Positions 12,092 to 17,214 of a stretch of DNA of 64,000 nucleotides are shown in pieces. Made by a program: the position numbers and the translations under genes. Below the pieces are notes generated by a model that was given only the letters and a program-made list of their open reading frames with translations, did no database searches and had not been told where the DNA came from. Position 1 is the first letter of the stretch. Every line of letters starts with the position of its first letter. Origin of the DNA: Myxococcales bacterium (GTDB lineage: Bacteria > Myxococcota_A > Bradymonadia > Bradymonadales > Bradymonadaceae); NCBI GenBank assembly GCA_007120035.1, contig SKON01000005.1:614-64613 (forward strand), written 5' to 3'.

Positions 12092-13636
12092 TCATTGCTG
12101 GGGCCGCAGAAACTCCTCGATAAGGCCGGGGTCATCGCGGAGCTCGGCGACCTCTTCCAGGACGGAGATGGCCCGGTCGGTGAAGTCGTCGCCGAGCTCC
12201 AGGGAGAGCCGGAAGAGGGCGGCAAACCCCACCCGCTCCCCGTAAGGGTCGTCAACCCGGGGGAGAGCTGCGACCAGGGCGTTGAAGAGGGCCTCGGAGA
12301 CCTCCCGGGGGCGGTCATGGCGAGACCACTCGGCGGCGGTGGAGATCACCATCGTTGGACTCAGCTCGGGGCTCGACTCTTCGATGTGTCGGGCCATGAG
12401 GATCTCGTCGGCCTGGCGGTCGCCGAGGCCGTAGGTGACGGCGAAAGCCGAGCCCACCAGGAAGATCGCCACCAGGAGTCCGGCGAAGAGAGTGGTCAGA
12501 CGGGAGACCGGGGGGCGAGGGAGGAAGGGGCCTCTGTGGGGAGCTGTCATGGCCCAGGCCAAGGCCATCCCGGCGGCGAAGCCCCCGAAGTGGGCCCATT
12601 TGTCGATGACCGGAACGAAGACCGAGAGAGCCACGTTCAGGCCGAGGATCACGGCCCACCACATGCGACTCTGACGGTACGGGGGAGGGAGGGAGGCGCC
12701 GTATCGGAGCTGGACGGCGAAGTAGGCGCCCAGGAGACCGAAGAGACCCGTGGACATCCCCACGGAGAAGAGCGCCTGGCCTGCGATGGTGGAGGCCGTG
12801 GCCCCGGCCAGAGCCGTGGCCAGCACGAGGACGACGGTGCGAACCTCGCCGAGGAGACGCTCGGAGTAGGTGCCCAGGAAGTAGAGGGCGAAGCCGTTGA
12901 CCAGGATGTGGACCGTGTTGCCATGGAGGAGGTTGGCGGTGATCACCCGCCACCACTGGCCGTGGTCGAAGACCAAAAGCGAGGAGTTAGCGCCCCAGTA
13001 CAGGGACTCCAGGACCTGCACGGGGTGGCCCAGGAAGTACTGGCCGGCGAAGACGGCGATCAGCAGCCACAGGAGGTACTTGGAGAACCGGGGCTGCACG
13101 GCTGTGGTTTCTTGGCTGAGCTCGGCCAGGGCCTGCATCTCCCGGAGGCGCTCGAAGGCCCGTGGCCGACGTTGGATGCGATCCAGGATCTGGGACCAGA
13201 ACACTCGCCAGAGCTCGGGGTGGGGGAAGTCGCTGGCCACATAGATCTGGGTCTTCTGGCCACCATCGATGACGAGCGCTGGTTCGCCCCGGGAGACCAG
13301 GGGGACGATGGTGCGGATCTCGTCGTAGGGGAGGTCTCGGTACCGCCAGGAGTTGCGGCTCTTGGGCAGGCGGAGGTGGTCCTTCTCGAAGAAGATCACC
13401 CGCGGTGATCGGGGCAGGGAGAGGCGCCGTAGCCCTAGGAGGATGGCCGGCAGGAGCGCCGGGGCCAACCAGGCCCACCAGGGCAATTCGGTGTCCAGGA
13501 TCTCCGCCGATTGCTGGAGGAGCCCGAAGATCAGAAAGGCCAGGAGCGCCGCCAGGATCATCATCCCGCGGGTGATCAACCGGGGGGGAGCCAGGGGGAG
13601 CTGCTCCATGGGCTTTGGCGGGGTAACGTCGATCAT
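12092..13636 (-). CDS. Rhomboid-family intramembrane serine protease with N- and C-terminal extensions
   Basis: Rhomboid motifs WWRVITANLLHGNTVHILVNG, GMSTGLFGLLGAY (GxSxG) and AHFGGFAAG. Start MIDVT at 13636 overlaps the upstream stop (ATGA). Confidence 0.85.
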   Translation of the reverse strand: MIDVTPPKPMEQLPLAPPRLITRGMMILAALLAFLIFGLLQQSAEILDTELPWWAWLAPALLPAILLGLRRLSLPRSPRVIFFEKDHLRLPKSRNSWRYRDLPYDEIRTIVPLVSRGEPALVIDGGQKTQIYVASDFPHPELWRVFWSQILDRIQRRPRAFERLREMQALAELSQETTAVQPRFSKYLLWLLIAVFAGQYFLGHPVQVLESLYWGANSSLLVFDHGQWWRVITANLLHGNTVHILVNGFALYFLGTYSERLLGEVRTVVLVLATALAGATASTIAGQALFSVGMSTGLFGLLGAYFAVQLRYGASLPPPYRQSRMWWAVILGLNVALSVFVPVIDKWAHFGGFAAGMALAWAMTAPHRGPFLPRPPVSRLTTLFAGLLVAIFLVGSAFAVTYGLGDRQADEILMARHIEESSPELSPTMVISTAAEWSRHDRPREVSEALFNALVAALPRVDDPYGERVGFAALFRLSLELGDDFTDRAISVLEEVAELRDDPGLIEEFLRPQQ

Positions 13637-14409
13637 GAGCAGTGGGTGTCTTCGGCGGGGGACCAGGCATCGCGGACGGCGTGGAGGTCCTGGACGGTGT
13701 CGATCTCTCGCCATCCGCCGTCGATGGGGACGGCAGTCAGGGGTACGCCGGCGTCGATCATCTCCTCGAAGAGGTCCGCCAGGTAGGCCCGCCGGAAGGG
13801 GCGCCCCTGTCGGAAAGGGGCGTCGTCGGTGAGGCGCTCCCGTACTCTATGAAAGTGTTCTCGGAGCGCCTCTGTTCCCCGGGCCGTGTAGGAGGCCAGG
13901 CCGATGAACTCCCCCAGGGCGCCGTCGGGAGGGACCTGCTTGCCGACGGCGGTGATCTGTCCGGTGTCGTCGACCCTGGTGAGCTCGGCTTGCTCCACGG
14001 GGTGGTCGTGGCGCCCCTGGTAGGCCCTACGCCACTGGCGGTCGACGATGAGGTTGATGTCGCCCGGGGCCGAGAGGGCGGCTTTCACCACGTCGGCGGT
14101 GAAGACGATGTCCGAGTAGGTCGTCAGCAGCGGGCCTTCAAGGGCCTCCTCGGCGCAGAAGAGGGAGTGGAGGATGTTGTTCTGCTCCCACCGGGGGTTC
14201 TCGTGGTAGGTGGCGCCGTCGACGGTCAGGCGAGTGGCGAGGTAGCCGCGGACGATGTGGATGTCCGTGACGCCACAGGCCTCAAAGGCGGCGAGCTGGT
14301 GGTCCAGGATGGACCGGCCCCCCACGGAGACCATGCATTTGGGCTTCTCGTCGGTGAACCCCTCCAGGCGGCTCCCTCGTCCGGCGGCGATAATGATCAC
14401 TCGTTTCAT
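13633..14409 (-). CDS. Nucleotidyltransferase, cytidylyltransferase-like (LicC/IPCT-type NTP_transferase)
   Basis: MKRVIIIAAGRGSRLEGFTDEKPKCM (GxGSR...K signature) and C-terminal WREIDTVQDL. ATGA overlaps at both ends. Confidence 0.85.
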   Translation of the reverse strand: MKRVIIIAAGRGSRLEGFTDEKPKCMVSVGGRSILDHQLAAFEACGVTDIHIVRGYLATRLTVDGATYHENPRWEQNNILHSLFCAEEALEGPLLTTYSDIVFTADVVKAALSAPGDINLIVDRQWRRAYQGRHDHPVEQAELTRVDDTGQITAVGKQVPPDGALGEFIGLASYTARGTEALREHFHRVRERLTDDAPFRQGRPFRRAYLADLFEEMIDAGVPLTAVPIDGGWREIDTVQDLHAVRDAWSPAEDTHCS

Positions 14410-15754: not shown

Positions 15755-17214
15755 GGTTCTTCCGGCATGTTCAGTGGGGTGAGGGCCCGGGTCTCTTCCA
15801 GGAAGATCAGGGCGTCGTAGCGGGCGGCGGGGTTGGTGTCGGGGTAGTTGCCGAACCGCTCGCGGATCGGGTCGTAGACGATGCCGATGGCGCGGTGGCC
15901 GGGGCGCTCTTCGAAGAAGGGGAGCTCTCGGTCGGCCTCGTCGAAGATCAAGACGTACCGGGGGACGTCGATGTGGTGGAGGAGGTCGTCGACGGTGCCC
16001 TCGATCGCCGTGGGGACGTCCATGACCTGGGTGGGGCGGCGGGTGTCCTGGGCGGCGATCACTTCGCCGCGGTGGTTGGAGAACCCGATGGACAGGACCT
16101 GATCTTCGCCCATGGTCTCTCGGCTCCGGTGGCCGATGTTGGTCTCGCCGCGGTCCCCCATGGCGGTGGCTCGGGCGTCGCCGATGTGGGTATTATGGGC
16201 CCAGATCACCCCCCGAGAGTCGGGGCCGAAGCTCTCGAGCAACCCCTGGGCCAGGGTGTGCATCCCCTCGGCCCGGCTGTTCCACCGGTCGTCGATGTGG
16301 GGGAAGTGAGCGCGCTGGTAGAGCTCGTTGATGACGATCACCCGGGCGTTCTTGCGGGCTCTGAGGTCGTCGAGGGAGTCACCGTCGAAGAGCTCCCGGG
16401 TGAGGTCCTGGGCGGTCTTCACGGCGGCCTCGCAGCTCCAGCCGTCGTGGTCGTGGTCGTGGTCGTGGTCGTGGTCGTGGCCGTGGTGGTGATGGTGGTG
16501 GTTTCGGTCGTGGAGAGCTCGCAGGTAGGAGACCATTTCGGGGCGGTACTGACCGATGCAGTCGAGGTGGCCGGCGATCTCCTCGGCGTGGTCTGGGTGA
16601 TGACGAGCGACGAGCTCGTTCAGCGCGTCGATGGAGTCGAAGGGGCTGAAGATGTCGATGCCGAAGAGGGGCACGGCCCGCTCAGGGTGGTCGGCGAAGT
16701 AGGCCCGGAGTTCGAGGAGGAAGTCGGCGAACTCTTCGTTAGCCCAGAGCCAGTCGGGCCACCGCTGAAAGGTGTCGCGGAGGAGCTGGTGGAGGTCCTC
16801 TTCGTCCCCTTCGCCATGGACGAAGGCCGTCAGGGCTTCGCCGGTGTGGAAGTCGCCCTCGTAGGCGATGAAGTCGATGCCGGGGTCGGCTTTCAGGAGC
16901 TCCAGGGTGAGCTGGGCCCGGATCTCGTAGTACTCACGGGTCCCGTGGGTGCTCTCTCCGAGGAGGATCAGTCGCCGAGAGGCGGCCATCTCCAGGAGCT
17001 CGTCGATGTCGACGATGGACTCGAAGGGGAGGGCCCGATCGGCGAGCCACGCTTCGACGGTGAGTTCGGCGGGCTCGTCGTCGGCGGTGGTCACCGATGC
17101 CTCTTCGGGGGAGGGCTCGTGCTCGGGGCGGTCGCAGGCGGTGACGGCGGCCACGGCGGTGATCAGGGGCAGGGTGGCCAGAAATATAAACAGTGGAGGA
17201 TGGGAACGACGCAT
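15751..17214 (-). CDS. Exported erythromycin-esterase (EreA/ChaN-like) family lipoprotein with a His/Asp-rich insert
   Basis: Lipobox AAVTAC. Family motifs LLGESTHGTREYYEIR and IWAHNTHIGD. Confidence 0.8.
   Translation of the reverse strand: MRRSHPPLFIFLATLPLITAVAAVTACDRPEHEPSPEEASVTTADDEPAELTVEAWLADRALPFESIVDIDELLEMAASRRLILLGESTHGTREYYEIRAQLTLELLKADPGIDFIAYEGDFHTGEALTAFVHGEGDEEDLHQLLRDTFQRWPDWLWANEEFADFLLELRAYFADHPERAVPLFGIDIFSPFDSIDALNELVARHHPDHAEEIAGHLDCIGQYRPEMVSYLRALHDRNHHHHHHGHDHDHDHDHDHDGWSCEAAVKTAQDLTRELFDGDSLDDLRARKNARVIVINELYQRAHFPHIDDRWNSRAEGMHTLAQGLLESFGPDSRGVIWAHNTHIGDARATAMGDRGETNIGHRSRETMGEDQVLSIGFSNHRGEVIAAQDTRRPTQVMDVPTAIEGTVDDLLHHIDVPRYVLIFDEADRELPFFEERPGHRAIGIVYDPIRERFGNYPDTNPAARYDALIFLEETRALTPLNMPEEP
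16444..16512 (-). repeat. (GTCGTG)6 plus a (GTG)n tract encoding HDRN-H6-G-(HD)6
   Basis: Read directly from the DNA. It lies inside the EreA-like CDS. Confidence 0.9.

Follow-up and report, generated by a model that had tools for sequence, protein, structure and literature searches.

How much of a tightly packed row of genes is a working unit, and what does that unit make? The question is raised by a block of five minus-strand genes, called g1 to g5 here from the upstream end, at positions 12092-17214 of the window, a stretch of 64,000 nucleotides (nt) of a Myxococcales bacterium (assembly GCA_007120035.1, contig SKON01000005.1, positions 614 to 64,613 of the forward strand). Two of the genes encode a cytidine diphosphate (CDP)-alcohol phosphotransferase (g3) and a cytidylyltransferase (g4). 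The membranes of myxobacteria contain unusual lipids, and for many of their head groups no attachment gene has been assigned. Our preferred interpretation, to which we give an even chance, is that the block is an operon-like string around a two-gene module, g3-g4, that would make a phosphodiester head group, probably on a membrane lipid.

The conserved pair g3-g4 and its enzymes

Gene order was compared with g3 as the anchor at 20 whole-genome loci and at 80 loci from named public genomes. At 67 of the 80 loci, belonging to Bradymonadales and Polyangia, g4 directly followed g3 on the same strand, and the junction was a 4-nt overlap in 48 of these 67 (median -4). The other junctions of the block overlapped elsewhere in 0 of 5 (g1-g2), 0 of 8 (g2-g3) and 2 of 10 (g4-g5) cases. 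Because adjacency and the 4-nt overlap recur widely for g3-g4 and the associations of g1, g2 and g5 are confined to one lineage, the conserved coupled unit is g3-g4. In a survey of 301 Myxococcota species, 62 had an orthologue of g3 (E <= 1e-25), always in single copy.

The g3 protein scored 51 bits against the Pfam family PF01066 (CDP-OH_P_transf; cut-off 22 bits), and its motif D87-C-A-D90-G-Q-L-A-R95-x8-G104-x3-D108-x3-D112 is an exact match to the family signature. The catalytic motif residues did not vary across 20 orthologues, and Arg126 and Arg158 were invariant in the orthologue alignment. When a profile of the 20 orthologues was compared with the PDB, the highest scores were obtained with AF2299 (63 bits) and with IPCT/DIPPS of Archaeoglobus fulgidus (37), followed by CPT1 and PIPS (~28), PssA (21) and PgsA (17 bits); the same profile picked up the eukaryotic CPT1 and CEPT1 proteins at E about 1e-5. 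The AlphaFold model of g3 (predicted local distance difference test score, pLDDT, 91.1) gave the same ranking: AF2299 (E 6e-6, template modelling (TM) score up to 0.64) and IPCT-DIPPS (3e-5), then the weaker PIPS (about 1e-3), CPT1 (0.05) and PSS (0.85). Foldseek probability was 1.00 for AF2299, IPCT-DIPPS and PIPS, the common fold being a multi-helix membrane fold.

In NCBIfam, the best matches of g3 were families that all take inositol-1-phosphate as acceptor. The score was 50.6 bits for PIP synthase (cut-off 170) and 35.3 bits for the DIPPS equivalog NF041135, far under the cut-off of 580, whereas PgsA (TIGR00560) and PssA (TIGR00473) gave 18.6 bits (cut-off 109) and 21.1 bits (cut-off 107), respectively. 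Separate genes for PgsA and for two PssA-like proteins are present in the genome, on contigs C61, C140 and C132. The sequence-only reading of the block had depended on g3 standing apart from such ordinary phospholipid synthases; no grouping with PgsA or PssA was seen, and AF2299 and IPCT/DIPPS were closest by sequence profile and by fold. Sequence comparison and structure model together place g3 in an AF2299/DIPPS-like branch that is distinct from PgsA/PssA.

The g4 protein scored 53.9 bits against PF12804 (NTP_transf_3) and has the motif G10-R-G12-S-R14...K24, which was invariant in 15 orthologues. A profile of these orthologues matched LicC best among the PDB entries (73.5 bits), ahead of glucose-1-P cytidylyltransferase and PntC (both 47) and IPCT (43.7); against NF041135 (IPCT/DIPPS) g4 reached 42.4 bits, with the cut-off at 580. 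The LicC match spans residues 1-102 only. The middle of g4, including an invariant W..AY.GR.DHP..EAE segment, is unmatched by LicC, and a weak, non-significant second alignment sets the C-terminal EID of LicC against WREID of g4. We class g4 as a COG1213/LicC-type enzyme, LicC being its best solved relative over that stretch. Members of the COG1213 family are known to act on phosphocholine, aminoethylphosphonate (AEP), inositol-1-P, phosphoglutamine or phosphoglycerate (PMC12275187, PMC6697681), and with such a range the substrate of g4 cannot be named from homology.

Family membership, motifs, adjacency and coupling were observed, and they suggest that g4 and g3 act in sequence. In such a pathway g4 would convert CTP and a phospho-alcohol to a CDP-alcohol and pyrophosphate, and g3 would move the phospho-alcohol from the CDP-alcohol onto a hydroxyl acceptor with release of CMP. 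The earlier proposal of a two-step module of cytidylyltransferase and CDP-alcohol transferase is supported by the conservation of the pair, by its translational coupling and by its distinctness from PgsA/PssA.

A second, paralogous pair lies in reverse order on contig C175 of the same genome (~3330-4997, plus strand), where a COG1213 nucleotidyltransferase (32% identity to g4, E 5e-31) precedes a CDP-alcohol transferase with the motif DCADGQLAR; the pair adjoins the genes of malate synthase and isocitrate lyase. Most family genomes, among them some that lack inositol-phosphate synthase (MIPS), also contain a weaker g3 match of similar size, probably a homologue of the C175 transferase.

Possible products: lipid head group or soluble phosphodiester

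The pathway would supply a membrane lipid, such as a diacylglycerol, an alkylglycerol or a lipid resembling ceramide, with its phosphodiester head group; we see the chances for and against this assignment as about equal. Counted in its favour is the position of g3-g4 in housekeeping neighbourhoods. In Bradymonadaceae the neighbours of the pair include a lytic transglycosylase, thyA and folA, and in Polyangia a membrane protein with a zinc ribbon is encoded upstream of the pair and a 135-amino acid (aa) protein downstream; a scan of the neighbours in both groups for a clue to the substrate revealed no obvious pathway enzyme. Moreover, because g3-g4 spans soil, fen, permafrost, freshwater, marine and soda-lake lineages, a membrane component fits better than a solute accumulated against salt or heat.

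Several points weigh against this interpretation. Among characterised enzymes, those nearest to g3 (DIPPS, PIPS and archaetidylinositol-phosphate synthase) all use a soluble polyol-phosphate as acceptor; this and the invariant Arg126 and Arg158 would suit a soluble, phosphorylated acceptor of g3 rather than a lipid. The alcohol that we name, glycerol phosphate, is a guess, reached by elimination and from AF2299 being the closest relative. Finally, co-transcription of the five genes in this genome is suggested by their spacing alone.

The acceptor arguments lead to the alternative that g3-g4 makes a soluble phosphodiester similar to the product of IPCT/DIPPS or to diglycerol-phosphate. Here the CDP-polyol formed by g4 would be coupled by g3 to a polyol-phosphate, whose phosphate could be bound by the two invariant arginines, and an unlinked phosphatase would free the solute. 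This is consistent with AF2299 and IPCT/DIPPS being the top matches of g3 in sequence and fold and with the inositol-1-phosphate acceptors of the top NCBIfam families (see above). It is also consistent with the origin of the nearest relatives of this genome, the 'CSSed' sediment metagenome-assembled genomes (MAGs), whose prefix we take to stand for Cock Soda Lake, a hypersaline soda lake. However, g3-g4 is just as conserved in Polyangia from fen, permafrost and soil, no phosphatase was linked to the pair at the loci compared, and the score of g3 is far from the DIPPS cut-off. To our knowledge, phosphodiester solutes of the DIPPS or diglycerol-phosphate kind are known only from (hyper)thermophiles, which also counts against a solute. 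Taken together, we regard a soluble product as unlikely.

Returning to the lipid head group, a ceramide-like acceptor raises the question of sphingoid base synthesis. The sole alpha-oxoamine synthase of the genome scored between BioF and serine palmitoyltransferase. Its gene cluster (contig C97:2352-8808, minus strand) also encodes an acyl carrier protein (ACP), two short-chain dehydrogenases and a 1128-aa protein composed of fatty acyl-AMP ligase (FAAL), ACP and ketosynthase, and may represent a sphingoid or aminolipid pathway.

A wider formulation, which we consider less likely than not, is that g3-g4 belongs to an undescribed pathway of Myxococcota. CTP activation of a common phospho-alcohol, such as glycerol phosphate, would lead independently of CDP-diacylglycerol to a phosphodiester head group or solute unreported from mesophilic bacteria, and g2 would be an extra enzyme or regulator in a subclade of Bradymonadaceae.

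In the Polyangia two proteins accompany the pair. The one before g3-g4, seen at 27 loci (e.g. L080:3349-6798), has ~487 aa and consists of a zinc ribbon at the N-terminus, a long linker rich in Ala and Pro and a transmembrane helix at the C-terminus, and the conserved 135-aa protein follows the pair at 16 loci.

The five-gene block and its lineage-specific neighbours

The features of the block and of its surroundings are listed in Table 1. The four ATGA stop/start overlaps said to chain the five genes are present, at 15751-15754, 15161-15164, 14406-14409 and 13633-13636, and the earlier domain calls and catalytic motifs were borne out by Pfam matches and motif positions. All five open reading frames (ORFs) are clean translations. 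Since the orthologue alignments open at residues 1-13 of the block proteins, the chosen start codons are favoured over longer upstream GTG, TTG or ATG options. In the NCBIfam search none of the five proteins reached a curated equivalog cut-off.

Table 1. Coordinates in the window of the block genes, their flanking genes and the tandem repeat in g1
Feature	Position	Strand	Description
PhoB-like response regulator	18956-19729	-	Co-directional, upstream; best NCBIfam match PhoB, below cut-off
PhoR/PnpS-like histidine kinase	17242-19035	-	Co-directional, upstream of g1; best NCBIfam matches PnpS/PhoR, below cut-off
g1	15751..17214	-	Erythromycin-esterase-family (EreA/TIKI superfamily) lipoprotein, 487 aa; lineage-specific neighbour
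Hexanucleotide repeat (GTCGTG)x9.3	16444..16499	-	In frame within g1, encoding HHHHHHGHDHDHDHDHDHD (Tandem Repeats Finder)
g2	15161..15754	-	Soluble 197-aa protein, no Pfam or NCBIfam match; confined to Bradymonadaceae
g3	14406..15164	-	Integral-membrane CDP-alcohol phosphotransferase, 252 aa, AF2299/DIPPS-like branch; module core
g4	13633..14409	-	Soluble COG1213/LicC-type nucleotidyl (cytidylyl) transferase, 258 aa; module core
g5	12092..13636	-	Rhomboid intramembrane serine protease, 514 aa; lineage-specific neighbour
RluA-family pseudouridine synthase	11087..12058	-	Co-directional, downstream of g5; TIGR00005 159 bits

The genome (66% G+C) has many ATGA overlaps, at least 195 by a conservative count that missed the four of the block itself, and the run of four is therefore an operon-like string and nothing exceptional. 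The kinase gene ends 27 nt upstream of g1 and the RluA gene lies 33 nt downstream of g5. As the flanking genes are so close and no intergenic terminator was found between the block and either of them, the boundary of the five genes is not sharp; terminator and promoter scans of the region were at chance level. At many Polyangia loci an RluA gene is likewise found 3-5 kb downstream of g4, and for this reason the g4-RluA neighbourhood is regarded as ancient. The kinase/regulator pair was upstream in the same order at loci L053, L055 and L061. Two long plus-strand ORFs antisense to the genes (11378-13408, 676 aa, and 15895-19056, 1053 aa), with translations rich in Gly, Asp, Glu and Val, are the usual high-G+C artefact and not genes.

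The overlaps could also mean that all five genes belong to a single integrated system of the envelope, perhaps regulated by Pho, in which g1 and g5 act on the product of g3/g4 or require it and g2 is an accessory enzyme. Co-occurrence of the five genes beyond this genome was indeed found, in about six close relatives (soda-lake MAGs). The complete order was present only at L052, L054, L055, L057, L058 and L077, that is, in the nearest relatives with 63-71% identity in g3; Lujinxingia has g2-g5 without g1, and at several such loci a PhoR/PhoB-like pair lies immediately upstream. These observations favour an integrated system, but the association is limited to one subclade, the g3-g4 overlap is the only conserved one, and both the kinase and the regulator score under the PhoR/PhoB cut-offs. 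In most genomes g3-g4 occurs without g1, g2 and g5, the pair having other contexts in most Bradymonadaceae and in all Polyangia. Moreover, when three divergent g2 homologues were used as anchors, no PF01066 gene was found within 6 kb, so that g2 is apart from g3 in three lineages. An integrated five-gene system is thus quite improbable, and the view that the genes work as one stoichiometric unit is unsupported.

The individual associations point in the same direction: g5 follows g4 in only ~12 loci, all of Bradymonadaceae, and g1 adjoins g2-g5 at only ~six. All 66 homologues of g2 are hypothetical proteins from Bradymonadaceae. Homologues of g2 and g3 come from Lujinxingia vulgaris, Persicimonas caeni, Bradymonas sediminis and MAGs of Bradymonadaceae, among others, and with the 'CSSed' MAGs as closest relatives these sources assign the window to the Bradymonadaceae (Myxococcota). 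Judged by these comparisons, g1, g2 and g5 are lineage-specific neighbours outside the conserved module. Tight overlaps in a single genome can overstate functional linkage, and here comparative synteny cut a five-gene 'system' to a two-gene core.

In the tests run here, nothing connected g1, g2 or g5 with the chemistry of g3/g4. The g1 protein scored 237.8 bits against PF05139 (Erythro_esteras; cut-off 26.4) and contains the motifs GESTHG and AHNTH; its signal peptide ends in the lipobox AVTAC, and a lipobox is present in every orthologue. With EreB it gave 31.6 bits (cut-off 750) and with EreD 25 bits (cut-off 800), scores so far under the cut-offs that an Ere resistance esterase is ruled out. 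The His/Asp tract encoded by the hexanucleotide repeat is unique to this genome, being absent or very short in orthologues, and could be metal-binding or length-variable.

For g2 neither a Pfam nor an NCBIfam match was obtained. Its model (pLDDT 92.9, predicted TM score 0.89) is an alpha/beta domain for which the fold search against the PDB returned no significant match (best E 0.018, TM 0.15), and among its numerous invariant residues are Trp (seven), His, Asp and Glu. The g5 protein matched PF01694 (Rhomboid) with 93.8 bits over residues 226-363, has the catalytic Ser in GMSTG and the His in AHFGG, and is extended by ~200 aa at the N-terminus and by ~115 aa at the C-terminus; it scored 47.9 bits against GlpG (cut-off 250) and 42 against rhombosortase (cut-off 84).

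The phospho-alcohol and comparison with known systems

If g3 and g4 act in sequence, which phospho-alcohol do they use? A CDP-inositol route, in which g4 is an inositol-1-phosphate cytidylyltransferase and the phosphoinositol acceptor of g3 is either a lipid or inositol phosphate, as in the putative Bacteroides vulgatus-type cluster, the Rhodothermus BEPIS or DIPPS, appears improbable. In agreement with such a route, an inositol-1-phosphate synthase gene, which the sequence-only reading had suggested looking for, was found elsewhere in the genome (contig C195:60725-62053); DIPPS and PIPS resemble g3, and ceramide phosphoinositol is reported in Myxococcus, according to a work cited in PMC9246714. 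However, this MIPS gene is unlinked to g3/g4, and eleven genomes (G005, G007, G009, G013, G018, G024 and G025-G029), several of them 93-99% complete, have g3/g4 without MIPS, which argues against inositol as the alcohol. Four family genomes have MIPS without g3, and in several relatives MIPS adjoins different CDP-alcohol transferase genes. LicC (73.5 bits) outscores IPCT (43.7 bits) for g4, and a far more DIPPS-like protein is encoded separately in the genome.

The latter, a 401-aa AF2299/DIPPS-like protein on contig C247 (5073-6278, plus strand), has a degenerate N-terminal cytidylyltransferase-like domain; its score against the DIPPS half of NF041135 was 99 bits. In G032, G034 and G038, open frames of ~480-500 aa, taken to be homologues of the C247 protein, lie within 1-2 kb of inositol-phosphate synthase.

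A Kennedy-type pathway for a phosphocholine, phosphoethanolamine or AEP head group, in which g4 would activate the alcohol as LicC or PntC does, is highly improbable: LicC is the best solved relative of g4, PntC is among its top matches and the g3 profile finds CPT1 and CEPT1, but phosphoenolpyruvate (PEP) mutase (TIGR02320) was found neither in this genome nor in any of the 24 family genomes, the choline/ethanolamine kinase family PF01633 is absent here and passes the cut-off in 1 of 41 relatives, and an invariant Tyr of g4 apparently occupies, as the alignment reads, the place of the amine-contacting Asp105 of LicC (residue roles from PMC6697681). The lack of PEP mutase across the family rules against the AEP route for g3/g4, and the PF01633 search against kinase-fed choline or ethanolamine. 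PEP mutase passed the cut-off in two of the 41 genomes, both without g3. In one class-level relative without g3 (locus L049, G031:C4, ~3557-5499) a PEP mutase gene (379 bits) lies ~0.8 kb from a CDP-alcohol transferase gene, a candidate phosphonolipid cluster.

Thus the analogies originally offered for the pair (inositol as in IPCT/DIPPS, and decorations of the phosphocholine or AEP type) are each contradicted by the gene-content tests for MIPS, PF01633 and PEP mutase. No precursor-supply gene was consistently linked to g3-g4 among the loci compared. Because none travels with the pair, the alcohol probably comes from central metabolism and requires no supply gene of its own.

The literature searches found no paper describing the myxobacterial g3-g4 pair, nothing specific on myxobacterial CDP-alcohol enzymes or on the polar lipids of Bradymonadales, and no assigned physiological substrate for AF2299. 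Among solved proteins, AF2299 of Archaeoglobus fulgidus (PDB 4O6M/4O6N/4Q7C), a CDP-alcohol phosphotransferase, is the top match of g3 by sequence and by fold and has the juxtamembrane motif TPNQ(V/I)T in common with it. In contrast to g3, it carries a fused N-terminal cytidylyltransferase-like domain.

The IPCT/DIPPS of A. fulgidus and Thermococcales (PDB 4MND), which functions in di-myo-inositol-phosphate synthesis, is the second-best match. Like g3-g4 it combines a COG1213 cytidylyltransferase with a CDP-alcohol phosphotransferase, and it has the same catalytic motif as g3. It differs in that here the two activities are encoded by separate genes in reverse order, transferase first, in mesophilic Myxococcota, as well as in the low score of g3, in the closer similarity of g4 to LicC than to IPCT and in the MIPS-less genomes.

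LicC, the CTP:phosphocholine cytidylyltransferase of Streptococcus pneumoniae (PDB 1JYK), is the best solved relative of g4 over the first ~100 residues; the nucleotide-binding motif G-x-G-(S/T)-R...K is present and invariant in g4. LicC supplies LicD-type transferases and not CDP-alcohol phosphotransferases, and no LicA-type kinase was found in this family.

Two bacterial systems also combine a LicC-like nucleotidyltransferase with a CDP-alcohol transferase, and for these the lipid head group has been proposed to arise by a Kennedy-like route. One is the putative inositol-lipid cluster of Bacteroides vulgatus and Prevotella, an unconfirmed pathway in which an NTP transferase, a CDP-alcohol phosphatidyltransferase and a haloacid dehalogenase (HAD) hydrolase are encoded beside MIPS (PMC9246714); the other is the CDP-inositol-dependent ether-lipid synthase of Rhodothermus marinus (Jorge et al. 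2015, as cited in PMC9246714). In contrast to the Bacteroides/Prevotella cluster, neither a MIPS nor a HAD gene is linked to g3-g4, and the pair and MIPS do not co-occur consistently. In the phosphonolipid clusters a COG1213/PF12804 cytidylyltransferase (PntC) is encoded beside a CDP-alcohol transferase, as are g4 and g3 (PMC6697681), and what sets them apart is the PEP mutase, missing from this genome and its whole family.

Tested against the defining features of the IPCT/DIPPS, Kennedy, B. vulgatus-type and PntC-type systems, g3-g4 has none of these sets. A single-copy coupled pair in about one-fifth of the sampled Myxococcota species that fits no characterised CDP-alcohol pathway, it is an uncharacterised variant of a known two-step enzyme logic and a concrete candidate for a missing step of lipid or solute biosynthesis.

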